From positions 33,502 through 97,501 of the forward strand of contig JANMQG010000057.1 in assembly GCA_031370285.1 (NCBI GenBank): a stretch of 64,000 nt of DNA. Direction: 5' to 3'. This DNA comes from Chloracidobacterium sp. (lineage in GTDB: Bacteria; Acidobacteriota; Blastocatellia; Pyrinomonadales; Pyrinomonadaceae). Position 1 is the first letter of the stretch, and each line of letters opens with the position of its first letter. Made by a program: the position numbers and the translations under genes. Shown here one piece after another: positions 11,390-59,326 of the stretch. The notes under the pieces were generated by a model. It searched no databases and was not told the origin of the DNA. It saw only the letters and a list, made by a program, of their open reading frames with translations.

Positions 11390-11405
11390 AACCTGAGGTT
11401 CGACT

Positions 11406-12880: not shown

Positions 12881-13190
12881 AAAGTAGGACGTACGGCAAG
12901 GGAGGCTTCCCGGTCACTTCAGCCTGCGGAATTCTGCGCATGAGTTCGGCATATTTCGCAGTGAATCACGGTTGATCGTCCGAGAACAAGCCTTCTAACG
13001 CTGGCACAAACGTTGCTGCCCACCTCCTGTAGGCCATCAGTGCTTACTGCCCGCAACGGCGCGCCTGCTGTCTCGTAACTACACCAGCGGGATCAGTCTG
13101 CAGGGAATGATCGCGAGCGCGGCTGGCCCTGAATTAGTAGGACGCCAGTAGCGTCCAATCGAGACGCAATTTCGAAGGGAGCAGTTCGAA

Positions 13191-14141: not shown

Positions 14142-14171
14142 GGCTTCGAAGGGCCGGCACCGAACCAATAG

Positions 14172-14945: not shown

Positions 14946-14957
14946 CAAACACTTCGA

Positions 14958-16124: not shown

Positions 16125-16136
16125 TTGCCCAACGAC

Positions 16137-17420: not shown

Positions 17421-17435
17421 ATAGATGGAGTCTGT

Positions 17436-26900: not shown

Positions 26901-29629
26901 TCAATGTCGCCGAGCGGGGTGGCCAAAGCCACGACCAGTCTGCCCCCCTTTGGTATCTCTTCCTGGAGTTCGGTTTCCTTTGCAGCCGGAGCCAGGGAAA
27001 CTGCCTCTTCGAGGTAATCGTTGGCTTTCTCATACTCTCCACGAAGGTTGGCGAGGGTGGCCGCCAAAGACAGCGCATGCCTCAGGCTATCGGTGTCTCC
27101 CACCGCGTGCGCAGCGTCAATAACCTGCTGCACCAGTCGCGTTGTCTCCTCGACCTTTCTGGCTTGCCAGGCAGTCTCCGCGGCGAGCAGGAGTGCTGCG
27201 ACTGCTCGCGGCTTTTGATTTTCACGTTCCAGGATCCGTCCCGCACTCTCTGCCTCTTTTAGTGCAGCATCGACGTCTCCCGCGATGCGGTGGGCCTGAG
27301 CCAGGAGCATTCGTGCTTCACCTTCGAGAGCCGGATCACCTTCCCATTCCTCATCAAGAAACTCGAGTACTGTCTTCGCGGCGCGAGCTGCTTCTTCGGG
27401 GCTGAAAGCATCAAGCGCTGCCTTAGCCATGCGCAACCCATACTCAACTGTCTTGTCGGGGACGTCACCCTGGGAGAAGTGGTGGACCAATTGTGGGTAG
27501 ACGCGCTCGAGTCTGCCGCCGTGACGCTTCTCAACTTCCTCAGCATATTTCCGGTGCAACGACCTTCGCTTGCGGCGGGCAATTGCACCGTAAAGCACGT
27601 CGCGAACGACGCCGCTCGAAAACACCAGGCGATCACCTCTCGACTCCCGTTCTTCCTCAAGGAGTCCCTCTTCTACCAGACGGTCAATCGCGTCCTCAAC
27701 ATCCTTTGCACCGGCCAGCGCTTCCAGGTCGCGAAAGTCAAAAGCCTTGCCGATAACTGAAGCAATCGACAGAATCTCACGCAGTTCTTCAGGTAGACGC
27801 TCGATACGTTTTTCGACCGCCTGTTGAATGGTGGCCGGCAAATCGCCGGTTGAGAGATCAGTGGCAGCACCGAGACTCCAGGCTCCTGTTTGATCCTTTG
27901 CGATGCCGCCTGAATCAAGCAGCGAGCGGACCAGTTCCTTAGTGAAGAATGGGTTGCCCTCAGTTCCTTCATAAAGTTTTTCGACGAGGCTGTCGGCTAG
28001 TTTAGGTCCGCCTATCAGTGTTTCGAGAAACAGGCGATGTTCCGCGGGTGAGAAAGGTCCCAGCGGGATTGCGGAAAAACGGCGGTCCCCGCGGAAACTT
28101 TCAAGCATTCGGAGCAGCGGATGGTTACGGCTGTCTACTTCACTTGACCGGTACGTCCCAACAATCAGCGTGGGAGTTGGTCCTAATCGACGAACGATGT
28201 ATTGCAATGCTTCAATGGATATCTCTGCCGCATGAAGATCTTCGAGGAAAAGAATCAGCGGCTTTCCCGCTGCCAGGCGTGTGAGCGTTCGCGCCAGTAG
28301 TTCAAAAACCTGGGTGCGGTTTTCGGGTCCCTGTGATCCGCCAAGCGATCCTCCAGACTGGGCCAACTTGGAGTCACCAGTCGCGGCGGCGCGAATCTCG
28401 CTGATCTCTGTAAGCATGGGAAACAACGACACGAGATCGGGGGCAACATCCGACAGCTCTAACATGTTGTCGGGAGAGCTGGCGCTATCCTTCAGCCGGA
28501 AGTATTCCTGAATTGCTTCACAGAACCCTTGATACGGGAAGGCGCCATCCTGCTCAATCGATCGGCCATGAAGGACGAGAAGCTTGCGGGCTTTGGCCAG
28601 GTTTTCTATCTCGTCGAGCAATCGTGTCTTACCGACGCCGGGCTCGCCTGACACCACGACAAATTGGCACTCACCGCTAATGGCGGCATTGAGTCGCTTC
28701 TGCAACTCAGCCTGCTCCTTCTCTCGGCCGATGAAGGGAGAGAGCGCCACACGCGGCATCATCAACGTCTTGGTCATTACCACTGATTTGCCGAGGTCGC
28801 TCTGGTGCAATCGGGTTTGACAGCGCCTTAAGGAATCAGCAACTTCACTTGCTCGCTGTGGTCGCTTTCCAGGCTCCTTGGCTATGCAGGCGAGTATGGC
28901 TTCCTCGAGGTCCTCATTAATCTCCGCACCCAATGAGCGCGGCGACTGGGGAATCTCATGAACTATTCGATAGAGTATCGATTGAAGTTCGCCCGAGAAT
29001 GGCGGTTCGCCAGTAAGACACTCGTAGAGAACAGTGCCGAGAGAATAAATGTCCGAGCGATGGTCCACTGCGTTAGCCGCCACTTGCTCCGGACTCATGT
29101 ATGAGAGAGTTCCTGCAATAGTGCCGGTCTTGGTAATGCGACTCTCTGTGGCGCCTCTGGCCAGACCAAAGTCCATGATCCGCACCCTGACACGAGCACC
29201 ATCCTCCCGCGTCGCCATGATGTTCTCCGGTTTTATGTCCCGGTGCGTTACGCCGCGTGAATGGCTGTATTCGAGTGCTTCGGAAACCTGGATGCCAATG
29301 TCGATAACTTCGCCCAGCGTCAGCGCGCCTTCGCGCTCGAACCAGCGCAGGTTCGTTCCCTGGAGAACGGGCATGACAAAAAAGAGCGATCCTTCGTGTT
29401 TGCCAAAGTCGAAGATTGGCACGATTGCTGGATGGTCCATCTGGGCCACCAGCTGCGCTTCGCGTTGGAAGCGTTGTTCCGTTTCGGGGTTCAGCAGTGT
29501 TGGAGGAATAAGCTTGACGGCTACTTCACGGTTCAATAGCGGGTCATGCGCGCGGTAGACCACGCCCATTCCGCCGCGGCCCAACTCCGACTTGATTTCG
29601 TATCGGTTAGAAAGCGTTTGACCAATCAT
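23954..29629 (-). CDS. multidomain Ser/Thr kinase - AAA/STAND ATPase - TPR-like region - two tandem family-5 solute-binding (peptide/nickel SBP) domains
   Basis: Start taken at ATG 29629 (GGAGGG RBS); the ORF opens at TTG 29656. Kinase GRGGMGVVY/HRDIKPEN/DFGLA. Walker A SGEPGVGKTRLLDE. Two SBP5-like modules each with DP...FETL...VRFxxG..LTA..V..SFER. No TM or signal peptide seen. Confidence 0.85.
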   Translation of the reverse strand: MIGQTLSNRYEIKSELGRGGMGVVYRAHDPLLNREVAVKLIPPTLLNPETEQRFQREAQLVAQMDHPAIVPIFDFGKHEGSLFFVMPVLQGTNLRWFEREGALTLGEVIDIGIQVSEALEYSHSRGVTHRDIKPENIMATREDGARVRVRIMDFGLARGATESRITKTGTIAGTLSYMSPEQVAANAVDHRSDIYSLGTVLYECLTGEPPFSGELQSILYRIVHEIPQSPRSLGAEINEDLEEAILACIAKEPGKRPQRASEVADSLRRCQTRLHQSDLGKSVVMTKTLMMPRVALSPFIGREKEQAELQKRLNAAISGECQFVVVSGEPGVGKTRLLDEIENLAKARKLLVLHGRSIEQDGAFPYQGFCEAIQEYFRLKDSASSPDNMLELSDVAPDLVSLFPMLTEISEIRAAATGDSKLAQSGGSLGGSQGPENRTQVFELLARTLTRLAAGKPLILFLEDLHAAEISIEALQYIVRRLGPTPTLIVGTYRSSEVDSRNHPLLRMLESFRGDRRFSAIPLGPFSPAEHRLFLETLIGGPKLADSLVEKLYEGTEGNPFFTKELVRSLLDSGGIAKDQTGAWSLGAATDLSTGDLPATIQQAVEKRIERLPEELREILSIASVIGKAFDFRDLEALAGAKDVEDAIDRLVEEGLLEEERESRGDRLVFSSGVVRDVLYGAIARRKRRSLHRKYAEEVEKRHGGRLERVYPQLVHHFSQGDVPDKTVEYGLRMAKAALDAFSPEEAARAAKTVLEFLDEEWEGDPALEGEARMLLAQAHRIAGDVDAALKEAESAGRILERENQKPRAVAALLLAAETAWQARKVEETTRLVQQVIDAAHAVGDTDSLRHALSLAATLANLRGEYEKANDYLEEAVSLAPAAKETELQEEIPKGGRLVVALATPLGDIDPVNMELVEEQEILANVFETLLATDLEGNLVPALCEKWEVSEDGTSVFFTLRENVRFQNGQALTAQAVKRSFERSIRVARELPPGLAAIRGAAEFARTASNDEELVGIVVHADYKLEIQLPDPLSIYPALLTDYKTGITLSDVAAGKTDSIPIGTGPFRMASYRPDRIVLERNEKYWKGSSAHLDEVEFRAGLSAAEIASGLRSGSIDLARDLSPQDLEEFLRDPRFRGGLVESPRKNTYFLIFNSTSGSVAQNLDLRRALSGVVRTHDLVWQTLGRFAQPAVCLIPPGMLGYDPGRRRQTLTRDETSSMLRSAGITDPIKLRAAVHPLFLDRYESLLTSLLSIWSELGVKVEVATPTMASYLESFQSSAGIDVFIGRWNADYDDPDDFTYGLFHSRVGLYRTYISSAEGDQILEEARTESRPGVRASLYRKYESFLQESGIVLPLFHDVDYRLANSKVRGLNLYGSAPYVNYAEIGKLESAARATDTLRAGGGTIEVPITGTLNHVDPSLAGTVEDSEVLPSIFETLTRDVGGARIVPWLATDFTAEQGGRRYRFRLRDDVRFHDGRKLTARDVRYSFERLLLNPESLGRFFYAPIRGAKTLLNGEASDLAGFRIHSANEFTIELDEPVSFFPALISYHAAAIVPEGSDKFGASWQEGSVGTGPFRVLKFEPGVRLELERNRNYWRSGYPRIERLNFNFGVAPADILSQFRAGRFSLAADLLPADAEALRRDPEFASGYHEIPNLITYYAAFNCQRGPLKDKRLRQTLARSIDVASVVRQTLGRLAVPAQGLIPPGLLGHDSAYTPRMPVPSTSASEQPDVKVELTAAVNPVFFGEYSALAREISRSVSDHQIKFRTVNKTMNELQEALLQGSVDIVLGRWGADYPDADTFANILSTKNGYLGKLCGSAEVDRLIARGRLETSPAARHGIYRQVEEIIARDRLLLPLFHEQTYRFARPEVEGLSLSYGAIVVDYACLRIHG

Positions 29630-30029
29630 CTTCCCTCCATGAAGAAACAAAGTCAAAAAGGTGTGAGAGGAACTCCTTCGTTAGGATGAGGAAAGAGAAC
29701 CCTTGTTGAGGGCGCTCTGTACTACTGAGCCAAGCGGTGACGGAAGTTGTAATGATAGGGCAGACCCTTACGGATTGTATAGAGGTGCGCACGAACGAGC
29801 GGGGACTAAGGTTGGCAAGTCAGGTGATGATGTTCGCGCGGCGCTTAAGACGAGGTAAGCGCTCAACCGTACTTCCCAATGCTGGTCAGGAGTCTCAAAT
29901 CCTAAGTCGAATCGCCCACGATTTGAATCTCTGACCTCCGCGTTGCACTTGGCCTCAATCACCTTTCGAACACTCTTAAGCCAAACAAAATCACATATTA
30001 TTCGAACGTCTGACTTCCGCGATCCGGCT

Positions 30030-36036: not shown

Positions 36037-36328
36037 ATAATCCTCGTTCGACAAATTGTCGAACGCCGTACGGAAAGCTGGCCGATTGACGAAGCTGTTT
36101 ACAAACGCTTCCTTGTTCGCTTGCAGTGTCGCCTCCCAACCGGGATTACCGACTACGACGCCCAGTCCCACGGCGCGCGTGTCAGGCATGAACGCGGCGA
36201 AGTTTGGAGAGTTTGAACCATTGTGCCACACATTTGCGAGTATTGACTTCGCCCCGCGTTTGGCATACAAGGGCCTTACTAGCAGTCGTCGTAACCTTCT
36301 CAATTGCGTACTTAACAGGAAGGTTCTT

Positions 36329-39300
36329 ATGACCCATTCCCAACGTAATTCAACTTTGCTCGCGCCACACACGTTATTCCGAAGCATCCTCATCGCGTTG
36401 CTGTTATCAAGCCTGACAACCAAAGCGGAACCGAGGTGCGATGCTCGCTCCCTCAAGCACGTCACGCAAAGCGAACAGGACGTAACCTTGTTACAGGAAG
36501 GCAAGCCAATCGAGCGCGAGCTAAAAGGGGCGCAGGCACACTCCTACCGGCTGATGCTCCCCTCAGATCTATATCTTTCCGCTGTGGTCGATCAGCGTGG
36601 CATTGATGTAGTCGTCACATTGTTTGCGCCCGACGGACAAAAACTTGCTGAAGTCGACAGCCCCAACGGCGCCAAAGGGCCTGAACCACTCGCGCTCATT
36701 ACCGCGACTGCGGGCAGTTTTAGGCTTGAAGTTCGGTCGCTTGAAAAGGACGCAAAGCCAGGACGCTACCAAGTAGAGATCGTTGAACTGCGTCCTGCAA
36801 CAGCACAAGACCGCAGTCGCATTGCGGCGCAGAAGATCTACGCGGAGGCGGAGCAATTGCGCACCCGGCAAACAAGTGCTTCGTTGCACCAGGCGATCAA
36901 GAAATATGAGGAAGGTCTGCTGCTCTTCCGCGCGGCTGCGGATCGCAGTGGCGAGGGGGACACGCTAATCGGGATCGGCGTTGCCTATAAAGACCTTGGC
37001 GAACGACAGAAGGCGTTGGAATACTATGCTCAGACGCTCGCCATTCGACAGGCCGCCGCTGACCATCGCGGCGAGGCGGAAGCGCTGAATAATATCGCCG
37101 AAGTGTATGACGCGATGGGCGAGAAAAAGAAGGCGCTTGAGAATTTCGAACTCGCATTGCAACTCTGGCGAGCCGCCGCCGATCGCTCGGGCGAGTCCTC
37201 AACACTGAGCAACATGGCAGCGCTCTATTCTTCCATTGGCCAGCCACGGAAGGCTCTCGATCTTTTCAATGAGGCACTGCCGCTACGCAGAGCCAGCGGC
37301 GACCGACCGGGCGAAGCGGCAACGCTCAATGACATCGGCGTCACTTACTTTGCATTAGCTGAACTGCAAAAGGCGCTGAGCTATTTCAATCAGGCGCTAA
37401 GCATCGTCAAAGCCATCGGTGATCGGCGCGGGGCTGCGTACACGATGACCAGTATGGGCCTCCTCTACGATGCCCTGGACGAAAAGCAGAAAGCACTCGA
37501 TTACTATGAGCAATCCTTAGCTCTTTTGAAAGCTCTTGATGATCGGTATGGGACGGCGGCCGCGCTCAACAACGAGGCGCTTCTCTATCTTTCGTTGCAC
37601 GAGAATCAGAAGGCGCTCGATTATTACAATCAATCGCTCTCGCTGGTAGTTGCGTTGGGTGATCGCTATGGTCAAGCCACTGTGTTGAATGGTCTGGGCA
37701 AGGTTTACCTCCTAATGGGCGAACCGCAGAAGGCGCTGGATTCGTTCAATCAATCGCTGCCCATGCGACGAGCCATCAGTGACCGCTCCGGCGAAGCCTA
37801 CACACTTCACAACATTGGCGGAGTCTACGAGCACCTGGGCGAAAAGCAGAAAGCGCTCGATCACTACAATCAGGCCCTCGCGCTGTGGAGCGTCGTCGGC
37901 GACCGGCGAGGAGAGGCTAGCACGCTTATCAGTACCGGAAGAGTTTACGAAGCTCTGGGCGACGGGCCGAAGGCCCTCGACTTTCTGAATCGGGGATTGG
38001 CGCTTCACCGAACCGTTAGTAACCGCAGCGGCCAGGCTCAGTCGCTTTACGAGCTAGCTCGCCTCGAGCGGGATCGCGGCAATTTGATCGAAGCCCGCTC
38101 GAGGATCGAAGCGGCCCTTGGGATCATCGAATCGCTCCGAACGAAAATCGCCAGCGAACAACTGCGCTCCTCATACTTTTCTTCGGTGCAGGAATACTAC
38201 GAGCTGTACATCGATGTGCTGATGCGCTTACACAAATTGCACCCGTCGGAAGGAAACGACGCCTCTGCTCTGCGAGGCAGTGAGCGCGCGCGGGGGCGCG
38301 GTTTGATTGATTTATTGATCGAATCGCACGCTGATATTCGGCAAGGGGTCGATCCGCAGTTGCTTGAACGCGAGCACGATTTGCAACAACTCCTGAATGC
38401 GAAGGCTGAGCGTCAGTTGCGCCTACTGAGTGGCAAGCATAGTGAAGAAAGCGCGCAGGCAGTGGCCAGGGAGCTGGAAGCCCTGACCACTGAGTATCAG
38501 GAAATCGAGGCCCAGATAAGATCGAAGAGTCCCCGTTATGCGGCGCTGACTCAACCACAGCCGCTTGCGCTGCGTGATATACAAGCGGAGCTACTCGATC
38601 AAGACACGCTGCTATTGGAATACTCGCTCGGCGAGCAGCAAAGTTATCTTTGGGCCGTGACGCAAACAGGAATTGCCAGTTATGGACTACCATCGCGAAC
38701 CGTCATCGATGAGCTGGCGAAGAATTTTTACAATTTGCTGACTGCACCGAGCCATCCCGCCGAGCCTGGAAAGAAGAGAGGACTCGGTGTGGAGACAAGC
38801 AGAGGTTCGTATGGCGACGTAGCGAATCGCCTGAGTCAGATGGTTCTTGGTCCGGTCGCCGCGCAATTGGGTAAAAAGCGTCTGGTCATCGTAGCGGAGG
38901 GCGCCCTGCAGTACGTGCCGTTCGGAGCATTGTTCTCGCCCACGATGACCAATAGACGCAAGACGAAAACTCCGCTGATTGTTGACCACGAAATCATCAG
39001 CTTGCCGTCGGCTACGACCCTCGCGGTATTGCGACGCGAGCTACCGGAACGCCGAACTGCGGTCAAATATGTTGCGGTTTTGGCGGATCCGGTCTTCGAT
39101 GTGCGTGATGAACGAATTAAGAAAGCACCGAGAGATGCGGCCGGCACTGCAAATGAGCAGGAGACTAGCGCTGAGAACCGGGGGTTGGGTCTGGCCCTGG
39201 AGAAATCAGCACAGGATACGGGGCTGAGTACGAGGTCTCTTAGCATACCTCGATTGCCCGGTACCAGGCGTGAAGCTGAGGCAATTCTGGCGCTTGTTCC

Positions 39301-39823
39301 TGCCAATGAGAGCAAGCAAGCATTGGATTTCGACGCGAGCCGTGCAACCGCCTTCAGCCCTGAGCTTAGTCAGTATCGATATGTGCACTTTGCCACGCAT
39401 GGCTTGCTTAATAGTGTTCATCCCGATCTATCTGGGATCGTGTTGTCAATGATAGACAAGAATGGCGCACCAGAAGATGGCTTCCTCCGCGGACATGAGA
39501 TCTTTAATTTACGCCTATCAGCGGAGCTTGTTGTCTTGAGTGCCTGTCAAACTGGCCTTGGGAAAGAAGTGCGCGGAGAGGGATTGGTAGGATTGACTCG
39601 CGCCTTCATGTACGCAGGAGCGCCGCGCGTAGTCGTAAGTTTGTGGAGCGTCAGCGATCTCGCAACCGCCGAGTTGATGGAGCGCTTTTATAAAGGGATG
39701 CTCGTTGACAGATTACGTCCGGCAGCAGCCTTACGCGCCGCGCAAGTTGCCATGTGGAAACAGCAACGTTGGTCTTCGCCGTTCTATTGGGCGGCGTTTA
39801 CGCTCGAGGGTGAGTGGCGCTGA
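36329..39823 (+). CDS. secreted TPR-repeat / CHAT-domain (caspase-like) protein
   Basis: Start at ATG 36329 gives a signal peptide ([17 protein letters not shown]). More than 15 TPR units with recurring GD(R)xGEAxTLNNIG. The CHAT His/Cys dyad context is HFATHG ... [10 protein letters not shown]. Confidence 0.85.
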
Positions 39824-39871: not shown

Positions 39872-40003
39872 GGCTTTGCCTTACGCGCGTTCACCGTAAG
39901 TCCTTCGGCGACTAATTCAGTGCGAAAATACATTGCAGACCAGCAAAGGCACCATGCAAAGAAGTCGTTTGTTGATGAGTTGAAGGAATTGTTAGAGAAG
40001 GCA
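39872..40003 (+). pseudogene. degraded C-terminal remnant of an IS200/RAYT-type Y1 transposase
   Basis: Reads GFALRAFTVSPSATNSVRKYIADQQRHHAKKSFVDELKELLEKAG. Compare RFAWQARYGAFTVSESQVDNVRLYIRNQEKHHQEFSFAEEFKALL in the intact copy at 58767-59207. No N-terminal HUH part, and an in-frame stop lies upstream. Confidence 0.65.
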
Positions 40004-40006
40004 GGG

Positions 40007-40063
40007 GTGGTCTACGCTCCGCTTCGACCACCGGCTACTTTCTATTCAACCCAGCGGGTTGAA
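40007..40063 (+). repeat. REP-like element abutting the transposase remnant
   Basis: gtggtctacgctccgcttcgaccaccggctactttctattcaacccagcgggttgaa. Terminal hairpin ttcaaccc-agc-gggttgaa. Confidence 0.55.
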
Positions 40064-40072
40064 TACGCAGCT

Positions 40073-41545
<1,473 letters not shown>

Positions 41546-41728: not shown

Positions 41729-42229
41729 TTATTGCAGGAACTGTTCGTAATCAGTTTTCCGAATATCCAAACCACCAGCGATACTTGCGGTAAGCGGCGC
41801 TTCATGATGTAACTCCGCGGACCGGCGCTGTACCCAGTGGAGCACGCTTAGCGCCACCGCAGTTAATATTGCCAGGATCACAATTGCCAGCACGACAGTC
41901 AAAAGCGGCGAGCGAGTGGCGGGTGCATCGGTATAAACCTTCGAGTGATAAGGGGTGCTTGCTACTTCTTCGCCTGTGCCTCCAGCTTCACGCATATAGC
42001 GCGTATAGCCTTCAATCGCCTCTTTCTCGTCGTAACCAACGTAACGAGCATAAGCTTTGACGAAGCTGCGATTGAAAATCCCGCCCGGCAAGCGTTTGTA
42101 ATCATTCGTTTCTATCGCTTCAAGGTAGTGCATCGAGATTCGCGTCTGATCGGAAATCTCGCGTAGCGGAATGCCGCGTCCCTCGCGTGCGAGTCGCAAC
42201 TGTTCACCGATAGTCGCTTCCATCACCAT
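41729..42229 (-). CDS. RodZ-like helix-turn-helix membrane protein
   Basis: HTH IGEQLRLAREGRGIPLREISDQTRISMHYLEAIE..FNRSFVKAYARYVG, one TM (LLTVVLAIVILAILTAVAL). Start uncertain (42229 or 42223 versus ORF start 42301). Confidence 0.7.
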   Translation of the reverse strand: MVMEATIGEQLRLAREGRGIPLREISDQTRISMHYLEAIETNDYKRLPGGIFNRSFVKAYARYVGYDEKEAIEGYTRYMREAGGTGEEVASTPYHSKVYTDAPATRSPLLTVVLAIVILAILTAVALSVLHWVQRRSAELHHEAPLTASIAGGLDIRKTDYEQFLQ

Positions 42230-42511
42230 TCGCTTCAGCCTTTTGCCTATCGCTTCGGTGGAGGTGGGCCTCGTTGGATACCAGTTGAAAGTAGACTGCA
42301 ACTTAGATTGCTGGAATCGGAGGCGGTCTAGCCCGCGCTGCTAAATCCCCTAATTGTTTGGCTGAATATATCTTGCGTTGCTAAACGCTGTCAACTTTTG
42401 CGTCAGAAAGAGAAGCGTCTCTTGATTCTTCGTGCGCGCGGTGATAGGTTTGCGCCTGCGATCGAACGTCGACTTTAATTTCTACAACAATAAAAAGTGA
42501 GGTTACATGAG

Positions 42512-42910
42512 ATGCCTTTAGAAGCACTCGGAATGGTGGAGACCAAGGGCTTTGTCGGAGCTGTCGAAGCCGCGGACGCGATGGTCAAAGCTGCGAATGT
42601 TCAGCTCATTGGAAAAGAGTATATCGGAGCCGGTTACGTGACGATCTTTGTTCGCGGAGACGTGGGCGCGGTTAAGGCAGCCACCGACGCCGGAGCAGCG
42701 GCAGCGCGAAGAGTCGGCGAACTGATTAGTGTTCACGTGATTCCTCGCCCACATGCTGAAGTCGAGCGCGTCTTACCGGCCGACGGGCGCACCGGTTTGA
42801 GCCCGGATGAGCGCTCGCTTGGAGGTGGCACTCGAGGCCAGTTGGGAGAAGGCGATCAGGGGCGCTCGCTTCACGGCGCGCGAGAAGGAAGCAAGGAAAA
42901 AGCCAGGTAA
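42512..42910 (+). CDS. BMC-H (hexamer) shell protein with about 45-aa Gly/Arg/Glu-rich C-terminal tail
   Basis: [58 protein letters not shown], the canonical PduA/EutM/CcmK-type BMC domain. Confidence 0.9.
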
Positions 42911-42913
42911 ACC

Positions 42914-42988
42914 GATTTTAGATTTCAGATTTCGGATTTTGGATTGGTGCCTTCCAAATCGCCAATCAAAAATCAGAAATCAAAAATC
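42914..42988. repeat. tandem-heptamer hairpin (GATTTYR arms)
   Basis: gattttagatttcagatttcggattttggattgg / short loop / ccaaatcgccaatcaaaaatcagaaatcaaaaatc. Confidence 0.8.
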
Positions 42989-43005
42989 GTGTTGGGGGGT
43001 TCGTC

Positions 43006-44886
43006 ATGTCCGCAGACAAGGACCTGATCTCGGTACAGCAGGCGCGGGACCTGGTAGAAGCCGCTTATAAGGCGCAGGCTGAGATCGTCAAATTTGACCA
43101 GGCAAAGATCGATCGAATTTGCGAGGCCATGTCCCGGGCCGCTCTGCGCGAAGCCGCCCGCCTCGGCGCATTGGCCGTGGAGGAAACCGGCTTCGGTATC
43201 CCGGACGATAAGCGAGAGAAGAACCGTTTTGCCGCTGAAGATGTTTGGAACTACTTTCGCGGGTTGCGCACTGTCGGCGTCGTTTCAGAATCAAGAGATG
43301 TTGTAGAGATAGCGAGCCCGCGCGGCGTTGTTGCCGGCATCATCCCTTCCACCAATCCGACCTCCACGGCGATCTTTAAAGTTTTGATCGCGGTCAAATC
43401 CAGAAACGCTATTGTGCTTTCCCCTCATCCGTCCGCGGCTCGTTGTATCAACGAAACGGTGCAGGTGATGCGCGAAGCGGCCATCAAAGAAGGTCTGCCG
43501 GCGGACGCGGTTGCCTGCATGACGACCGCCACCATCGAAGGCACTGAAGCTTTGATGAAACACAAGCAGACGGCTGTCATCCTGGCTACCGGCGGCATTG
43601 GGCTGGTGCGCGCAGCTTATTCATCGGGCAAACCCGCGTTTGGAGTCGGCCCCGGTAACGTTCCTGTTTTTATCGAGAGAACTGCGGATGTTACCAAAGC
43701 GGTTCAGGATATTTTGACTGGAACGACTTTCGACAACGGAACCATTTGCGCTTCTGAGCAAGCTGTAGTTTGTGATGCTCCTATTGAAAAAGCTGTAAGG
43801 GAACAATTCAAAGCGCAGGGCGGGCACTTTCTTTCCGCTGCGGAAGCTGACCAACTGGGCAAAGTGGTGGCAACTCCACAACGTTCTCTAAACCCCGGGA
43901 TCGTAGGAAAGTCGGTCGAGGTGATTGCCAAGCTGGCCGGGTTGAACGTCCCTCCAGGCACGCGCTGCCTGATGGTGGATGTTGGCGGTGTCGGACGTGA
44001 GTTTCCGCTGTCTATGGAAAAGCTCTCACCCATCCTCGCGTTCTATGTGACGGACGGCTTATCGCGTGGCGCGGAGCGTTGCTATGAAATCCTGCGCTAC
44101 GGCGGCATGGGCCACACCGCGGGAGTTCACACTCGTTCGCGCGAGGCCGCGGTCCGCTTCGGCGGGGAGATGCCGGCGTCGCGCATTACGGTGAATACAC
44201 CTACAACTCACGGGGCGATTGGTTTCTCGACGGCGCTTCCGCCATCGATGACCCTGGGCTGCGGTTCGTGGGGCGGCAATGTAACTTCGGATAATGTGTC
44301 GCCACTCCACTTGCTGGATATCAAGCGAGTAGCTTTTGAAACAAGAGCAGTGAAAAGTAAACGGCCGGCAGTTGCAGCTTCTACGGTAGCCACTCCTGCG
44401 CCAGCGGCCGCGTATGCCGGAACGACTGCGAGCTCGGCGCCAGCTCAACCTCAGGCGGTAGTTGGTTCTGGTGCGGGCAAGATCAACCGCGAAGACATCG
44501 CCGCGATAGTCGACCGGTTTCTGGCGGGGCGCCAACCGGAGCAGCCGTCGAGTGAAGCAAGGGAGACGCGACAGCAACCGTCGCGCGCAGCAAGCGAGCC
44601 CGAAGCCGAAGCTGGCAGCATGTATGCCGGACCAGGCCAGAACCGAACTGATAATGTCCGCCAGCCGGCAAATGCCGGCCGATCATCTTCGGCATCTTCG
44701 GCTGGCTCCAGTTCAAGCAGCGCTTTGACCGCGAACAATGGCGCGAAGACGGTTGACTTCGTTAGTGAAGACGACGTCAAACGCGCGATTCAAAAAGGTG
44801 AGAAGATCTATATCAACGCGAAAACCATTATCACTCCGGCAGCCCGTGACATCGGCGAACCGGGCGAAGTGTTTGCTAAAGGCTAA
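43006..44886 (+). CDS. CoA-acylating aldehyde dehydrogenase (PduP/EutE-like) with 180-aa C-terminal extension
   Basis: Core about aa 1-446 with catalytic Cys in [11 protein letters not shown] (codon 43747-43749). Then an Ala/Ser/Pro-rich linker, amphipathic [16 protein letters not shown], a second Ser-rich linker, and the terminal module [33 protein letters not shown]. Confidence 0.9.
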
Positions 44887-44978
44887 AGTTTCAAGTTCCA
44901 AGTTCCAGGTTTCAAGTTAGGCGCTCAGGGCCAGACTGGAAACCTGGAACTTGGAACTTGAAACTTGGAACTTGAAAC
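44886..44978. repeat. tandem-heptamer hairpin (GTTYCAA/GTTCCAR arms)
   Basis: aagtttcaagttccaagttccaggtttcaagtt / loop / ctggaaacctggaacttggaacttgaaacttggaacttgaaac. The right arm ends 1 nt before ATG 44980. Confidence 0.85.
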
Positions 44979-44979
44979 C

Positions 44980-45309
44980 ATGTTCTTAGGCAAAGTCGTC
45001 GGCACAGTTTGGTCTACCAAGAAGACTCCCGATCTTGAAGGCATCCGCTTTCTGGTCGTGCACCCCTATGATCTGGAAAAAGATCCAACCCGGAACATCG
45101 TCATTGTTGCCGATCGGCTGGGCGCCGGAAGTGGCGAGATGGTGATTTGTGCCTTTGGCAAAGCAGCGCGCACGGCAATGGGCAATCAGGACATGGCAAT
45201 CGAAGCCGCAGTCGTTGGGATAGTCGATCGGGTGGACATCACCGACACGGCTTCAGAAGAGATGCGCGAGGCGGCGCGTCAACTCGCGCGCGATAATGGA
45301 AGACAGTGA
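44980..45309 (+). CDS. BMC-P (pentamer/vertex) shell protein, EutN/CcmL family
   Basis: MFLGKVVGTVWSTKK...LVV...VADRLGAGSGEMVICAFGKAAR...EAAVVGIVDRVD. Confidence 0.9.
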   Translation: MFLGKVVGTVWSTKKTPDLEGIRFLVVHPYDLEKDPTRNIVIVADRLGAGSGEMVICAFGKAARTAMGNQDMAIEAAVVGIVDRVDITDTASEEMREAARQLARDNGRQ

Positions 45310-45413
45310 GGAGTGAAAAGTGAAGAGTGAAAAGGCGTTGAATTGTGCTGAGGTTTGATTCACGCGCTAGCCAACATTCCAGAACTCATCACTTTTCACT
45401 TTTTACCTTTCAC
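45306..45413. repeat. tandem-heptamer hairpin (GTGAARA arms)
   Basis: gtgaggagtgaaaagtgaagagtgaaaag / 50-nt loop / ctcatcacttttcactttttacctttcac. Confidence 0.85.
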
Positions 45414-45421
45414 TGGTTTTT

Positions 45422-45901
45422 ATGGCTAACGAAGATTTGATTTACCGGCTCACGAAGGCCGTCTACGGCCGCCTGGGTCCGGCAGCGGACGAGCAAACCG
45501 TCGAGCAACTCGTCACAGAAGTGTTCCGCGAGATCGAGCCCTTTCTGCACGCGAACGGATCGTCATACTCCTCTTTACAATCTCTTCCCGCGAGCGGCAC
45601 CGCTGCTTCGCAATCGCCGGAAGGTTCTGCTGACCGAATGATCATTTCGGTGTTTGGCGTAGACCATCCCGGCATTGTCGCCGGAGTCGCCCAGATACTG
45701 GCCGGTGCCGGCTGCAGCATTGTGGATATCAACCAGACGGTAGTGCAGGGCAAGTTTGCCATGGTCATCATCGCCAACAGCGCGCACGCGCGGGAGAGCG
45801 CAGCCGAATTGAAAGAGCGACTGCGGAGCGAAGGGGAAAAACTTGGCGTCCGTATCTACGCGCAGCGTGAAGATCTCTTTAACGCCATGCACCGGATTTG
45901 A
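45422..45901 (+). CDS. ACT-domain protein of the UPF0237 type with 71-aa N-terminal extension
   Basis: C-terminal 88 aa: MIISVFGVDHPGIVAGVAQILAGAGCSIVDINQTVVQGKFAMVII...GVRIYAQREDLFNAMHRI, as in UPF0237 partners of UPF0210. The N-terminus has helices LIYRLTKAVYGRL and VEQLVTEVFREIEPFL followed by a Ser/Pro/Ala linker. Confidence 0.8.
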   Translation: MANEDLIYRLTKAVYGRLGPAADEQTVEQLVTEVFREIEPFLHANGSSYSSLQSLPASGTAASQSPEGSADRMIISVFGVDHPGIVAGVAQILAGAGCSIVDINQTVVQGKFAMVIIANSAHARESAAELKERLRSEGEKLGVRIYAQREDLFNAMHRI

Positions 45902-45903
45902 AT

Positions 45904-46018
45904 GTCGAATTTCGGATTGCGGAATTCGAATTGAAGAACCGAGACTTTCAAACTTCAAATTAAAAGCACAGCTGACAATGGACAAAACCCGCAATCCGAA
46001 ATTCGCAATCCGAAATTC
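45904..46018. repeat. long-armed hairpin (GAATTTCGGATTGCG arms)
   Basis: gtcgaatttcggattgcggaattcgaattg / 56-nt loop / cgcaatccgaaattcgcaatccgaaattc. Confidence 0.85.
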
Positions 46019-46023
46019 CCACT

Positions 46024-46560
46024 ATGCCTGAACCAGAAATTGCTCGACGCTGTCCCACCTGCGGCGCATCAATTCGCGAGGTAGCCCTCTTCTGTCCGCA
46101 ATGTGGCAACGCGCAGCCACACCGGCAAGCGCGCGCCGCAGCCGCACTCCCAGAAACGACTTCTAAAAGTACAGCCCCCCTGGAAGACTCAGAGGCCGAG
46201 GCGCCGCAGAAGTCTATGTCCGACACAATCGCGATTGAGAGACCTGAAGATGCGCCCAAAGTTCCGGCTAACGCGCGATCTATGTCTGACACTATCGCGA
46301 TTGAGAGACCTGAAGAAACGCCCAAAATCTCGGCTAGTCCAAACGTACGTGGAGCGGTGGGCGCAAAGCTGCAGCGTGCCACCACGCTCGTGCGTGATGT
46401 CGAAGGCGACGTGATTTATCGAGTGCAGAAAGTGCGTGAGATCTCCAGTGTAGTTTTGGATGAAGCGGGAAACGATCCCGGGCTGCGTTTTTTGCTGGTC
46501 GCCGGAATCCTCTTTGTTCTGTTTCTCGTCATTGTGTTGTTGAATAGATTGATTACGTAG
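46024..46560 (+). CDS. zinc-ribbon protein with C-terminal TM anchor and internal 22-aa tandem repeat
   Basis: CPTCGASIREVALFCPQCG. SMSDTIAIERPE(D/E) twice (DNA repeat 46213-46250 / 46279-46316, period 66). C-terminal LRFLLVAGILFVLFLVIVLL. Confidence 0.65.
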   Translation: MPEPEIARRCPTCGASIREVALFCPQCGNAQPHRQARAAAALPETTSKSTAPLEDSEAEAPQKSMSDTIAIERPEDAPKVPANARSMSDTIAIERPEETPKISASPNVRGAVGAKLQRATTLVRDVEGDVIYRVQKVREISSVVLDEAGNDPGLRFLLVAGILFVLFLVIVLLNRLIT

Positions 46561-46654
46561 AGTTTTTAGTTTTGAGTTTTGAGTTTAAGGAAGAGCCACA
46601 CCAGCGAAAGCCGCGTATCTCAAAACTAAAAACTCAAAACTCAAAACTTAGAAC
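46561..46654. repeat. tandem-heptamer hairpin (GTTTTGA arms)
   Basis: agtttttagttttgagttttgagtttaag / 29-nt loop / ctcaaaactaaaaactcaaaactcaaaacttagaac. Confidence 0.85.
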
Positions 46655-46663
46655 TAGAAAACC

Positions 46664-48025
46664 ATGGAATATTCGCAAGCAGAAATCCTTCAAACCGTCG
46701 CGATGACGGAAATGGAACACCTGGACGTTCGCACCGTAACGCTGGGTCTGAGTCTGCGCGACTGCGCCAGCGAAACAATCACGCGCACCGCCGAACGCGC
46801 GGTGGAAAAAATTCACCGGTTCGCCGATGTTTTGGTTCAGACTGTCGACGCGATAGGCGACGAATTTGGGATACGCATCGCCCACAAGAGAATCGCGATA
46901 ACGCCGGTGTCGATGATTACGGAAAGCGCCTCCGGCGATCCGGTCAACCTGGCACGTGCGATTGACGAGGTCGCAGCCGCAGTCGGCGTGGATTTTATTG
47001 GTGGCTATTCCGCGCTGGTTCACAAGGGAGCCACCGATTCCGAGCGCGAGTTTATGAACTCCATTCCCGAAGCGCTCTCCGTCACCAAGAGGTTGTGTTC
47101 ATCTGTGAACGTTGCGACCACGCGCGCCGGCATAAACATGGACGCGGTGCGGCAGGTGGGAATCATCATCAAGGAAGCCGCCGAGCGCACCAGCAACGAA
47201 GGCGGCATCGCCTGCGCAAAGTTTGTCTGTTTTGCGAATTCAGTTGAAGACAATCCCTTCATGGCCGGAGCTTTTCACGGGCTCGGCGAACCCGAGGCCG
47301 TGATCAATGTCGGCGTGTCCGGCCCCGGCGTTGTTAACTATGCCATCAGGCATGCCGCGCCAGATCTGCCGCTGCAGGAGTTAGCCGAAATCATTAAGAA
47401 GCTTTCGTTCAAACTTTCGCGCGCCGGCGAACTGGTGGGCAGGGAAGCCGCGCGCCGTCTGGGAATTCCTTTCGGCATTATTGATTTGTCACTCGCGCCG
47501 ACACCTGTGCCAGGTGATTCAGTGGCAAACATAATCGAGGCGATGGGTTTTGAAAGAGCGGGAACTCATGGCACCACTGCCGCGCTCGCCTTGCTTACCG
47601 ATGCAGTCAAAAAGGGCGGGGCGATGGCGAGCGGATCTGTCGGCGGTATGAGCGGCGCGTTCATTCCCGTTTCCGAGGACGCGGGCATGATCGAGGCCGT
47701 CCGCCTCGGCGCGCTTTCGCTCGATAAACTCGAAGCCTGGACCAGCGTCTGTTCTGTCGGTATTGATATGGTGGCCGTGCCCGGCTCAACTTCGGCCGAG
47801 ACTATCTCCGCAATCATTGCCGACGAGATGGCTATCGGTGTGATGAATAACAAGACCACGGCCGTCAGGATCATCCCGGCGCCCGGCCGGGTGGTAGGTG
47901 AGATGGTTGAGTTTGGCGGCCTGCTTGGCAGCGCGCCGATAATGGCAGTAAACGCGTTTTCGTCGGCCGGCTTCATCCATCGTGGCGGCCGCATTCCGGC
48001 GCCGATCCATTCGCTGCGGAACTAA
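46664..48025 (+). CDS. UPF0210 / DUF711 family protein
   Basis: 453 aa. N-terminus [27 protein letters not shown] and the length match my memory of the UPF0210 family, which is normally paired with a UPF0237 ACT protein. Confidence 0.8.
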
Positions 48026-48037
48026 AGCCGGGTAACA

Positions 48038-48171
48038 GAGCCCTCCATAACTGTCGGGCTACTGCCCCGGCGGAGATTGCGCGTGAATTCTCAAGTCTCG
48101 GCTGCTCGCGTCACTCAAAAATGGGCTTGCGGCGTAGCACGGGGCAGTAGCCCGACAGTTATGGAGGGCTC
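48038..48171. repeat. perfect 32-bp inverted repeat, 134-bp MITE/REPIN-like unit
   Basis: gagccctccataactgtcgggctactgccccg (48038-48069) and its exact reverse complement (48140-48171), 70-nt loop. Confidence 0.85.
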
Positions 48172-48273
48172 CGCTAACCCAACACTCAATCCTGGAGATG
48201 CCAATCTTTTCGTGCGGGACGCCCACGGTCTGGCAGATATGAAGATGGTCCTTATTAATTTGAATCAATAGGC

Positions 48274-48744
48274 ATGAGCTGTACGCCCAACACTCTTCGT
48301 CAAATCGCGCGCCGAAAATTCCACCGCTTCATCTTTTGCGCGGCCGGCATTTACAACATCGTCTGGGGTCTCTACTCAGTTTGGGACCCGCAGTGGTTGT
48401 TCCGATACTCTGGTCTGCCGCTACAAAACCATCCACAGATCTTCGCTTGCCTCGGTATGGTGGTGGGATTGTATGGGATTATTTATTTCGAGGTCGCGCG
48501 CGTTCCCGAGCGCGGCTGGTTGCTGGCCGCCGTCGGGCTGACAGGGAAAGTGCTTGGCCCCATCGGCCTCTTCCGCTTGATCTGGAGCAGTACGTGGCCG
48601 CGGGCGACGATGGTGTTGTCGCTCACAAACGATCTGATCTGGTGGGTCCCATTCGCCCTATATCTCTACGATGCCTGGCCGGCGTTTCGACAAGATGTAT
48701 TCCAAACGGTGAGCAACAAAGACTCTGGACAAATTGCAGGCTAA
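48274..48744 (+). CDS. hypothetical 4-TM membrane protein
   Basis: 156 aa with four hydrophobic segments. No SD seen, no motif recognised. Confidence 0.5.
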
Positions 48745-48794
48745 GGCTTAAGTTCTACCTATTCAACGGCAGCATAAGGAGCGGCGAAGAAAAA

Positions 48795-49118
48795 ATGGCA
48801 GAAGCACTCGGCATGGTTGAATGCATGGGACTGGTCGCGATGATCGAAGCGGCTGACGCAATGGTCAAAGCTGCTAACGTACGCCTCGTCGGCTGGGAAA
48901 AGATCGACGCCGGTTTAGTCACGGCGATAGTGAGGGGCGACGTCGCTGCGGTGCGTGCGGCCGTCGATGCCGGAGCTGCCGCCGGCAGCAAAGTCGGCAA
49001 GGTTGTTGCTACCCACGTAATTCCGCAACCGCATGGCGATGTCGATCTGGGGTTGCCGGTCCTGCAAACAGGTGAAACAACCAAGAAGAAGATTAGCGGT
49101 TCAGTTCGCGCGAAATGA
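48795..49118 (+). CDS. BMC-H (hexamer) shell protein, second paralog
   Basis: From ATG 48795 (AAGGAG upstream): [58 protein letters not shown]. Confidence 0.9.
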
Positions 49119-58766: not shown

Positions 58767-59326
58767 TTATCCCCACAAGTGCGCTTCATCAAAGTCGATG
58801 TGGTGGGCCCTTAGTAACGCTTTGAACTCTTCTGCGAAAGAGAACTCTTGGTGATGCTTTTCCTGGTTGCGAATGTACAGTCTCACATTGTCGACTTGAG
58901 ATTCACTGACAGTGAACGCACCATAACGCGCCTGCCAGGCAAAGCGGCCTTTGGTTTGCCGTTTGGCCCAACCCGAAGAGTTCGCTTTCAACTTGCTCAA
59001 GAAGTCTGACACGGAGATGGTTGGACGTAGCTTAACCAGCAGATGGACATGATCTGACACTCCGTTGATCTCAATTGGAATGCATCCTAAACCGCGCACG
59101 ATACCTCCGAGATATTCGTGCAATCTAGGCTTCAACGTGTTCGTAATTAGTGGAGCGCGCTCCTTTGTCGCGTACACAACGTGACAGAGGAGATTGGTAT
59201 ATGACATATCTTTACCTCTTTCGCCTGCTAGCAGGCTCATTCCTTTTGGTTGGTTAGTTTCCCCAGGCTCGCAGAGCCTCGCCAGGGGCTAGGATTCTAT
59301 CGCCTGCATCACAGGCTGGTTGAGTG
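58662..59326 (-). mobile_element. IS200/IS605-family or RAYT-type element: Y1 transposase gene flanked by about 105-bp direct repeats
   Basis: 58662-58768 and 59221-59326 align (tcgcc.gct..gcaggctcat..tttccccaggctcgca.agcctcgccaggggcta..a.tctatcgcctgc..c.caggctggttgagt). About 665 bp total, IS200-like size. Confidence 0.7.
58767..59207 (-). CDS. tnpA: IS200-like / REP-associated tyrosine (Y1, HUH) transposase
   Basis: 146 aa from ATG 59207 (GAGG RBS). HUH motif DHVHLLV, catalytic Tyr region VRLYIRNQEKHH. Confidence 0.9.
   Translation of the reverse strand: MSYTNLLCHVVYATKERAPLITNTLKPRLHEYLGGIVRGLGCIPIEINGVSDHVHLLVKLRPTISVSDFLSKLKANSSGWAKRQTKGRFAWQARYGAFTVSESQVDNVRLYIRNQEKHHQEFSFAEEFKALLRAHHIDFDEAHLWG

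Follow-up and report, generated by a model that had tools for sequence, protein, structure and literature searches.

The 64-kb stretch of DNA analysed here, called the window at its full length, comes from a member of the Pyrinomonadaceae (Acidobacteriota, Blastocatellia), and the nearest 39 genome loci all belong to Pyrinomonadaceae, Blastocatellia or Acidobacteriota. Using open reading frame (ORF) and family searches over the window, we found eight plus-strand genes of a bacterial microcompartment (BMC) operon at 42512-49118, spaced by 50-250 nt. From 42.5 to 49.1 kb their order is BMC-H1, aldehyde dehydrogenase (AldDH), BMC-P, ACT protein, zinc-ribbon protein, DUF711 protein, a protein with multiple transmembrane (TM) segments and BMC-H2. 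The subject of this report is the ACT protein, which carries a tethered N-terminal helical hairpin, and the link that it makes between the DUF711 family and microcompartments. A sequence-only reading of the window had already placed all of these genes at essentially the same coordinates, and the family hidden Markov models (HMMs) PF00936, PF03319, PF00171, ACT_6/PRK00194 and PF05167 all matched in the expected genes. That reading had overlooked the tail of BMC-H1, the tail of the AldDH and the N-terminal extension of the ACT protein, which are included in the following list.

42512-42910, plus strand: BMC-H1, 132 aa (PF00936, E 4.6e-29), first gene of the operon and conserved
42785-42910, plus strand: BMC-H1 residues 91-132, disordered Gly/Arg/Glu-rich C-terminal tail of about 42 residues
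43006-44886, plus strand: AldDH, 626 aa (PF00171; best NCBIfam match TIGR02518, 586 bits, residues 4-461)
43006-44346, plus strand: AldDH catalytic core, residues 1-447 (PF00171; TIGR02518, EutH_ACDH; AdhE N-terminal half, 538 bits)
44479-44535, plus strand: AldDH encapsulation peptide (EP), residues 492-510, amphipathic, with Pro/Ala/Ser-rich linkers on both sides
44752-44886, plus strand: AldDH terminal domain, residues 583-626 (44 aa), with the stop codon; nearly invariant in 33 loci
44980-45309, plus strand: BMC-P, 109 aa, pentamer (vertex) protein (PF03319, E 1.3e-27)
45422-45901, plus strand: ACT protein, 159 aa (ACT_6; PRK00194, UPF0237, 92.7 bits against a cutoff of 74)
45425-45559, plus strand: helical hairpin of the ACT protein, residues 2-46, with predicted helices at 2-18 and 24-46 (AlphaFold2 predicted local distance difference test score, pLDDT, 94-97)
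45560-45634, plus strand: disordered tether, residues 47-71, rich in Ser/Ala/Pro/Gln (pLDDT below 50 at 47-58 and 60-64)
45635-45901, plus strand: UPF0237-type ACT domain, residues 72-159, with the stop codon (PRK00194; 1ZPV)
46024-46560, plus strand: zinc-ribbon tail-anchored protein, 178 aa (PF13240, E 2.6e-7), TM helix at residues 156-174
46664-48025, plus strand: UPF0210/DUF711 protein, 453 aa (PF05167, E 5.9e-177; PRK05313, 690 bits against a cutoff of 440)
48274-48744, plus strand: multi-TM protein, 156 aa, 3-4 hydrophobic segments, no Pfam or NCBIfam match
48795-49118, plus strand: BMC-H2, 107 aa (PF00936, E 7.8e-29), with KAAN and variant PQPH motifs

A promoter and terminator scan of the plus strand gave no signal above shuffle expectation for the boundaries of the operon.

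Compared with canonical UPF0237 proteins of about 90 aa, the ACT protein has 159 aa and stands among shell genes. The added part is a 71-residue N-terminal extension that canonical UPF0237 proteins lack, and residues 70-159 alone align to the 91-aa UPF0237 protein of S. pneumoniae (1ZPV; E 3.6e-10). In an AlphaFold2 model built from a 30-sequence alignment (mean pLDDT 87), the predicted hairpin is followed by a disordered stretch at residues 47-68 and then by the ACT fold, and by Foldseek just the ACT part of the model aligned to 1ZPV (TM-score 0.86). The protein can be placed in UPF0237 by its PRK00194 score above the cutoff, its 1ZPV-like fold and the UPF0210 gene that follows downstream after one inserted gene. 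Within the hairpin, helix 2 is amphipathic and has the highest hydrophobic moment of the whole protein (0.66), and the tether differs among the 30 representatives both in length and in sequence. When 1.84 billion cluster representatives were searched, full-length relatives were retrieved down to 28% identity, and these share a common pattern of a helix, a conserved Leu-Gly turn, a second helix, a variable linker and the ACT domain. Extended ACT proteins are also well represented in soil metagenomes, with 4929 matches, the best 120 of which are 82-92% identical over the full length. The hairpin itself had no usable Pfam or PDB match, and its HMM matched no protein besides the ACT protein in 170 loci or in the window.

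The AldDH also carries a specialised terminus. Its best NCBIfam match, TIGR02518, is the acetylating acetaldehyde dehydrogenase family, and the enzyme is of the CoA-acylating type. Cys248, within the motif NGTICASEQ, is encoded by TGC at 43747-43749, which is the catalytic codon named by the sequence-only reading. Beyond the core, a C-terminal tail of about 180 aa consists of a Pro/Ala/Ser-rich linker, the EP, a variable low-complexity linker with an EAGSMY motif, and the 44-residue terminal domain. This layout of core, EP and terminal domain is identical in 33 AldDH orthologues, where the EP is strongly conserved and the flanking linkers are free to vary, and the near-invariance of the terminal domain reaches distant Blastocatellia. 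The terminal domain had no Pfam or PDB match and just a weak hit to TIGR02536 (eut_hyp, E 0.002), and the EP HMM gave no further match among the ORFs of the window and of the 170 loci.

The AldDH EP is a textbook example of the classical EPs of PduP, PduD, EutC and EutE. The N-terminus of the ACT protein may be compared with them in its predicted amphipathic helix (helix 2), its flexible, disordered and poorly conserved linker, and its apparent restriction to organelle-associated homologues, here in lineages with the ACI and FRAG microcompartment types described below. It differs from them, and from the AldDH EP, in being a two-helix hairpin of 46 residues, whereas a classical EP is one helix of 15-20 residues. 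The hairpin can be regarded as a candidate shell-docking or encapsulation module. A sequence relationship between the hairpin and the AldDH EP was rejected: when 30 ACT N-termini were scored with the EP HMM, they did not rise above their shuffled controls, so the two elements are not related in sequence.

For the conservation of the operon, one genome per GTDB species was scanned, and the ORFs of each locus (six-frame) were searched with the window proteins. The ACT protein was matched over residues 1-159 at 42-90% identity in 39 acidobacterial loci (Pyrinomonadaceae, Pyrinomonadales and Blastocatellia), and all 39 carry shell genes. The usual layout begins with IMP dehydrogenase (IMPDH) and HTH_25 genes on the minus strand and continues on the plus strand with BMC-H1, AldDH, BMC-P, ACT, zinc-ribbon, DUF711 and BMC-H2. 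Where enough downstream DNA was available, the DUF711 gene keeps its place among the shell genes, with BMC-P before it and BMC-H2 after it, in 33 of 36 loci. Two long contigs carry the same operon according to their precomputed Pfam labels. More distant Blastocatellia and other Acidobacteriota have partial versions: BMC-H, AldDH and ACT without DUF711 (L042, L044), BMC-P, ACT, zinc-ribbon and DUF711 without AldDH (L043), or BMC-P and ACT only (L045). In L044, from a Blastocatellia metagenome-assembled genome (JBDIBI010000001.1), a 458-aa protein without a Pfam match is encoded at 8593-9969, between the EP-bearing AldDH and the hairpin-ACT gene. This protein, possibly a further BMC component confined to its lineage, was rejected as a divergent DUF711 because the two sequences show no similarity.

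The hairpin is also found outside Acidobacteriota. A profile of divergent extended ACT proteins retrieved sequences whose sources were named as Chloroherpetonaceae, Calditrichota (including Caldithrix abyssi), Ignavibacteria and KSB1, and together hairpin-ACT proteins occur in Ignavibacteria, Chloroherpetonaceae, Calditrichota, KSB1, Rhodothermales and Acidobacteriota. When the acidobacterial hairpin HMM was applied to 44 N-termini from the Fibrobacteres-Chlorobi-Bacteroidetes (FCB) group, 39 exceeded the 99th percentile of shuffled sequences and 15 exceeded the shuffle maximum, and on this ground the hairpin is homologous across the two groups. In Caldithrix abyssi, a 97-aa EutN_CcmL protein gene is followed by hairpin-ACT and DUF711 genes with gaps of about 20 and 3 nt, and a second Calditrichota-like contig (source label Caldisericaceae) has the same BMC-P, hairpin-ACT and DUF711 order. 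The gap between ACT and DUF711 is 3-30 nt in the FCB-group phyla. The Chloroherpetonaceae locus L088 (JANRJQ010000010.1, 10001-13494) is different in content; it encodes hairpin-ACT, a 4HBT thioesterase, a type II dehydroquinase, an AldDH and a 155-aa protein, without DUF711. Its AldDH (552 aa) is 49% identical to that of the window and ends in an EP-like helix, SDAEINDLINQFKKK. A CoA-releasing enzyme, the thioesterase, thus stands in L088 where DUF711 sits elsewhere. The KSB1 and Ignavibacteria loci with hairpin-ACT and DUF711 had no shell gene within 10 kb. At the Ignavibacteria-type loci (L172:8299-10004 and about 12 metagenome loci, e.g., L116:2317-3156), two paralogues of about 280 aa with weak TPR-like and TM signals are encoded directly 5' of hairpin-ACT and overlap its start, and LemA and TPM_phosphatase genes stand 3' of DUF711.

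Loci with an ACT protein that lacks the extension provide the contrast set. In the metagenome scan, BMC-P is directly upstream of the ACT gene in 10 of the 41 hairpin-type loci, which thus have the BMC-P, hairpin-ACT and DUF711 order of Caldithrix abyssi, and a shell gene was seen in none of the 39 loci with an extension-less ACT. The genome scan gave 39-40 further extension-less loci, again with ACT and DUF711 adjacent and no shell gene, among them Firmicutes, Dehalococcoidales and the acidobacterium Holophaga foetida (L064). The hairpin is absent from 1ZPV and from all of the approximately 79 pairs without BMC linkage. In total, shell genes are in view in 49 of 81 hairpin loci and in 0 of 79 hairpin-less loci (Fisher p ~1e-19), a value that overstates the link because the loci are phylogenetically related. 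The hairpin is restricted to loci or lineages with ACI- or FRAG-type shell genes, which is compatible with targeting.

Could this association be coincidental? The ACT and DUF711 genes might be a housekeeping pair that is merely syntenic with the shell genes, as IMPDH is, and the hairpin might serve oligomerisation or regulation outside the organelle. Such an explanation can draw on the commonness of the pair without BMC genes (about 79 loci), on about 30 hairpin loci with no shell gene in view, on the phylogenetic non-independence of the statistics, and on the hairpin itself, which resembles a self-packing helical pair and has no similarity to the AldDH EP. Against it, the order of BMC-P, hairpin-ACT and DUF711 is the same in two unrelated phyla, with the window and Caldithrix abyssi BMC-P proteins 59% identical. 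Holophaga foetida is an acidobacterium without the hairpin, so the hairpin does not simply track the phylum. Moreover, the hairpin-bearing taxa are largely those in which ACI and FRAG microcompartments have been catalogued, and the genes of these types are scattered by definition. We therefore consider pure coincidence quite unlikely, and the link of ACT and DUF711 to microcompartments is real and apparently undescribed.

The published BMC catalogue (Sutter, Melnicki, Schulz, Woyke & Kerfeld 2021, Nat Commun 12:3809; PMC8217296) contains a type that resembles the operon closely. The ACI type was defined from 125 loci, found in Acidobacteria only and mainly in subdivisions 4 and 6, and is listed as function-unknown, with no obvious signature enzyme or phosphotransacylase (PTAC). 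Its main locus encodes a pfam00596 aldolase with a C-terminal EP, a pfam00389/02826 hydroxyacid dehydrogenase, a BMC-P triplet and BMC-H, and the class II aldolase is the likely aldehyde generator (PMC8217296). Its satellite locus encodes an AldDh (pfam00171) that carries an EP not far from its C-terminus and, after it, a domain of about 50 aa of unassigned role; a fourth BMC-P occasionally stands with the AldDh, and a further BMC-H may accompany them (PMC8217296, Supplementary Data 2). An ACT model, HMM01842act_1_acimic3, is assigned to ACI/MIC3 (PMC8217296). The operon of the window agrees with this description in its acidobacterial host, in the EP (492-510) and terminal domain (583-626) of its AldDH, in the consecutive BMC-H, AldDH, BMC-P and ACT genes, in its additional BMC-P and BMC-H genes, and in the missing PTAC. 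Since taxon, AldDH architecture and gene content all match, we read the locus as an ACI satellite operon, in which the BMC-P probably corresponds to the catalogued fourth BMC-P. The catalogue is silent on the zinc-ribbon protein and the N-terminal hairpin of the ACT protein, and neither its text nor its HMM table, in the form searched, mentions DUF711/PF05167 (PMC8217296); here, in addition, the genes form a fixed seven-gene operon that is conserved across about 35 Pyrinomonadaceae species.

The hairpin-bearing taxa outside Acidobacteriota lead to a second catalogued group. FRAG microcompartments occur in Ignavibacteria, Chlorobi, Rhodothermaeota and Calditrichaeota, have no identifiable enzymes and gave negative EP-HMM searches, and the FRAG4 type of Marinimicrobia has an ACT protein with a BMC-specific N-terminal part together with a blue-clade BMC-P (PMC8217296). 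Most of the hairpin-bearing taxa are in the FRAG and ACI groups, KSB1 being not clearly among them, and the FRAG taxa Ignavibacteria, Chlorobi, Rhodothermaeota and Calditrichaeota (the last with FRAG2/3) resemble the window in having hairpin-ACT and DUF711, often right after BMC-P. The catalogue states neither a connection with DUF711 nor that this N-terminal part is homologous to that of the acidobacterial ACT protein, and FRAG4 was compared by its description. The shell proteins show a further resemblance. BMC-H1, for which an alternative GTG start exists at 42497, has the canonical KAAN and PRPH interface motifs and then its disordered tail, and BMC-H proteins with C-terminal extensions of about 50 aa were noted for FRAG3 and FRAG8 (PMC8217296). 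BMC-P stands directly 5' of hairpin-ACT in Acidobacteriota and in the 10 metagenome contigs, and BMC-H2, the last gene of the conserved cluster, lies 3' of DUF711 at a varying distance in most Pyrinomonadaceae loci.

The catalogue also changes how the small gene set is to be understood. Pfam scans of about 40 further window ORFs of at least 80 aa found no second BMC/EutN gene or tandem-BMC protein, no class II aldolase, 2-Hacid_dh, dehydratase, ethanolamine ammonia-lyase, glycyl-radical enzyme or RuBisCO, and no PduL/Pta or Fe-ADH (PF06130, PF01515, PF00465), in agreement with the sequence-only reading, which had seen no BMC-T and no known signature enzyme. Of the canonical metabolosome core, the AldDH alone is present, and the signature enzyme, the PduL-type phosphotransacylase and the alcohol dehydrogenase are absent from the window, which is consistent with the catalogue's account of ACI as a type without an obvious signature enzyme or PTAC. 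The sequence-only reading had suggested that ACT/DUF711 may be the signature or cargo activity of an uncharacterised metabolosome. In its full form this would be a self-contained organelle outside the catalogue, having a minimal shell (two BMC-H with a single BMC-P) and lacking part of its core, where ACT/DUF711 would take the place of the signature enzyme and generate the aldehyde for the AldDH. BMC-H and BMC-P in principle suffice for shell closure, as in synthetic minimal shells, and this speaks for a self-contained organelle. So does the absence of any other signature enzyme, and of the main-locus genes, from the window. The fold superfamily of DUF711 also includes glycyl-radical enzymes, the signature enzymes of the glycyl-radical enzyme microcompartment (GRM) organelles. 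Yet the AldDH tail, gene content and taxon are those of the catalogued ACI satellite, and the EP-bearing pfam00596 class II aldolase is catalogued in a separate main locus (PMC8217296). Related loci, moreover, combine AldDH, shell genes and hairpin-ACT without DUF711.

The comparison with glycyl-radical enzymes can be followed in the DUF711 protein itself. DUF711/SP0239 belongs to the ECOD ten-stranded barrel superfamily together with ribonucleotide reductases and glycyl-radical enzymes, and no radical glycine was found in it (Lundin et al. 2015, PMC4390871). DUF711 differs from the GRM enzymes in its length of about 450 aa and, on the evidence of these authors, in having no glycyl-radical motif (PMC4390871). 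No radical-SAM activase gene is present among the genes of the locus, the only radical-SAM gene being at 335-1747, 40 kb off, and the locus does not qualify as a GRM. The window protein is also almost unchanged from its counterparts in organisms without BMC genes, which argues against a BMC-specific aldehyde-forming role. On balance, a self-contained metabolosome with DUF711 as its signature enzyme appears improbable. A satellite locus is expected to have a small shell set and no signature enzyme, and the appearance of a minimal, signature-less shell in the cluster at 42.5-49.1 kb is probably an effect of satellite status. In summary, the sequence-only reading was right that acidobacterial BMC loci had been listed as function-unknown, as the ACI type shows (PMC8217296), and the synteny of ACT/DUF711 with shell genes, whose failure would have refuted it, holds in 39/39 acidobacterial loci and in the cross-phylum cases, whereas its minimal metabolosome without a signature enzyme is probably better read as a catalogued satellite.

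The DUF711 protein has no feature of its own that would mark it as a BMC component. It aligns end to end with PDB 2HA9 (residues 7-453 against 6-446, E 1.7e-154) and has no extension and no BMC-specific sequence feature. Its fold is a PFL/RNR-like ten-stranded barrel, and it is presumed to be the enzyme with which the ACT protein works. In 128 sequences from Acidobacteriota, the FCB group, Firmicutes and Chloroflexi, 124 of the 453 positions are at least 97% conserved; the window protein retains all 124, including Cys34, Cys145 and Cys363, and Cys184 is conserved at 95%. Because every near-invariant position is kept, DUF711 is expected to do the same thing here as elsewhere. The conserved motifs are rich in Gly, Ser, Thr and Asp (e.g., DxSLAPTPxxGDS), and together with the near-invariant Cys residues they suggest a metal- or phosphate-dependent active site. 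A BMC-specific DUF711 clade was ruled out: identity is 57-59% to FCB-linked copies and 57-65% to unlinked ones, with 63.6% to the Holophaga copy. An exact-sequence look-up found an identical DUF711 solely on a 3-kb Logan contig. When 104 non-acidobacterial ACT-DUF711 loci were clustered by their neighbours, no recurrent partner beyond ACT emerged, just sets confined to particular lineages, TPR-like proteins, LemA and TPM_phosphatase among them. In the literature, our search found no paper that assigns a function to DUF711, UPF0210 or UPF0237, or that ties them or ACT domains to microcompartments.

The relationship to the UPF0237/UPF0210 pair of S. pneumoniae (SP0238/SP0239; 1ZPV, 2HA9) is nevertheless clear. 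Both the ACT domain and the whole DUF711 protein are family members by the NCBIfam cutoffs, the DUF711 is 57-65% identical to copies from hairpin-less organisms, and the two genes are adjacent nearly everywhere. The differences lie in the hairpin and tether of the ACT protein, in the surrounding shell genes, and in the zinc-ribbon membrane-protein gene inserted between the two. Some shell-linked hairpin-ACT genes have no DUF711, and therefore the organelle-specific element is the ACT protein; that DUF711 is recruited with it we infer from the near-universal adjacency of the genes and from ACT being the only neighbouring partner.

The hairpin-ACT protein could also be an organelle component by itself, as a metabolite-sensing regulator or a scaffold, with DUF711 adjacent through inherited operon structure and not encapsulated. 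The ACT protein indeed occurs in shell or AldDH contexts without DUF711, after BMC-H and AldDH in L042 and L044, after BMC-P in L045, and before the thioesterase, dehydroquinase and EP-like AldDH in L088. The catalogue lists just the ACT domain for ACI/MIC3 and FRAG4 (PMC8217296), the DUF711 protein has neither an extension nor a BMC-specific clade, and in Acidobacteriota the zinc-ribbon gene splits the pair. On the other side, the gap in the FCB group is just 3-30 nt, and 33/36 acidobacterial loci keep DUF711 between BMC-P and BMC-H2. Furthermore, no hairpin locus has a second short ACT gene beside DUF711, so hairpin-ACT appears to be the only partner available to DUF711. Taken together, an organelle role of the ACT protein alone seems unlikely to us.

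Our favoured explanation is an AldDH-bearing satellite operon of an ACI-type metabolosome, with docking by the hairpin-ACT protein and DUF711 carried piggy-back, to which we give a probability of roughly 0.55. The operon would contribute two kinds of hexamer, an additional pentamer and the CoA-acylating AldDH, and the AldDH would be targeted by its EP, set between two flexible linkers near the C-terminus. An ancient UPF0237(ACT)-UPF0210(DUF711) pair would have become embedded in the operon, where the ACT protein would have gained the 46-residue hairpin on a disordered tether of about 25 residues. The aldehyde source would be the aldolase of the main locus, as proposed in the literature and extended here to the host genome, and the AldDH would turn the aldehyde into acyl-CoA inside the shell, a chemistry suggested by its family membership. 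The hairpin would then most likely dock the ACT protein on the shell, with the pentamer clade encoded in the same operon as a plausible site, and an unmodified DUF711 would be carried along as piggy-back cargo through the ACT protein. Speculatively, DUF711 could act on the pathway product under allosteric control by the ACT domain. The sequences and models themselves establish the identities of the genes, their conserved order, the build of the AldDH tail, and, for the hairpin, its predicted structure, its homology across phyla and its restriction to ACI/FRAG-type loci or lineages; from these we infer the docking by the hairpin, the ACT-DUF711 complex, its lumenal location and a main locus elsewhere in the genome.

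Several observations weigh against this explanation. First, the association counts are inflated by shared ancestry, about 30 FCB-group loci with hairpin-ACT and DUF711 have no shell gene in the available DNA, and BMC-linked hairpin-ACT stands without a nearby DUF711 in L042, L044, L045, L088 and L098-L101. Second, no similarity was detected between the hairpin and the EP that the operon's own AldDH carries, and the two helices of the hairpin could bury their hydrophobic faces against each other, unlike the single helix of a classical EP. Third, DUF711 forms no BMC-specific clade and has no extension. Finally, the main ACI locus of the host genome was not located, and its aldolase, hydroxyacid dehydrogenase and BMC-P triplet are absent from the window.

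A bolder proposal extends the favoured explanation beyond the window. BMC-P, hairpin-ACT and DUF711 may be an ancient module of ACI and FRAG microcompartments, in which DUF711 would be an overlooked enzyme cargo brought in by a new two-helix targeting domain, possibly at a dedicated vertex pentamer and possibly for CoA recycling; we put this forward as a tentative idea. As to the reaction, the acyl-CoA that the AldDH produces might be the substrate of DUF711, which could, for instance, recycle CoA. This idea arises because ACI and FRAG loci have no PduL-type phosphotransacylase, and we regard it as very doubtful.

Two further genes of the operon are more restricted in their distribution. The zinc-ribbon protein has two SMSDTIAIERPE repeats, at residues 64 and 86, and its gene lies between ACT and DUF711 in Acidobacteriota only (L007-L040, L043), whereas ACT abuts DUF711 in the FCB group. 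There is no obvious explanation for such a membrane anchor inside a microcompartment operon. Homologues of the multi-TM protein were detected just in L002, L007 and L009, and it is probably peripheral; together with a downstream His_Phos_1 gene it is kept in the closest relatives only. Mobile-element traces were also seen at related loci, namely XisH/XisI genes between BMC-P and ACT in L043 (7989-9040) and an IS200-like Y1 transposase gene between DUF711 and the TM protein on a JGI contig.

Outside the operon, the window contains the following further genes.

7704-11258, plus strand: pyruvate:ferredoxin oxidoreductase, 1184 aa
within 7704-19138, plus strand: DHO_dh-like protein, Amidohydro_2 protein (13191-14141) and SDR protein
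14958-17420, plus strand: two HGD-D subunits of the 2-hydroxyacyl-CoA dehydratase / benzoyl-CoA reductase family
17436-19138, plus strand: two BcrAD_BadFG ATPases
41729-42301, minus strand: HTH_25/XRE-type, RodZ-like protein (PF13413, E 3e-21), divergent, with a C-terminal TM helix at 136-154

Nearly every Pyrinomonadaceae locus whose flank is long enough has the HTH_25 gene 5' of BMC-H1; the gene product is a possible regulator, or the gene is simply a conserved flank together with IMPDH (40073-41539). Immediately 5' of this flank, a 1255-aa protein with TPR and CHAT (caspase-like) domains is encoded at 36056-39823 on the plus strand, and a related 1.2-Mb contig has a different gene, of 1627 aa, in its place. 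The start of a 127-aa ORF at 39920-40303 resembles what we take to be a C-terminal transposase remnant, and an intact Y1_Tnp gene is present at 58767-59240. The plus-strand run at 7704-19138 is a set of anaerobic-type metabolism genes in a soil acidobacterium. Its pfam04909 amidohydrolase corresponds to the enzyme of the catalogue's MIC3 locus, and the window copy is 30 kb from the shell genes. Two kinase genes complete the picture. A 1900-aa protein encoded at 23954-29656 on the minus strand joins an N-terminal Ser/Thr kinase to AAA_16 and two SBP_bac_5 domains, an unusual sensor-kinase architecture, and a second kinase, at 19785-22601, is fused to a PD40 beta-propeller.

In conclusion, the ACI-type microcompartment was already known, and the tethered hairpin on the ACT protein, which ties DUF711 to microcompartments, is apparently new. 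UPF0210/DUF711 and UPF0237 are a very widespread and very conserved pair with solved structures and no assigned function. Microcompartments of the ACI and FRAG types abound in soil Acidobacteriota and many candidate phyla; the catalogue enters both as function-unknown and the FRAG type as lacking a recognisable enzyme. If the link proves to be merely syntenic, the locus would be another example of a catalogued function-unknown BMC type. The position of the hairpin next to a conserved pentamer clade leads to a concrete hypothesis, that ACT-DUF711 would be recruited to shells in a hairpin-dependent manner, and the hairpin may be a new type of targeting module for BMC engineering.

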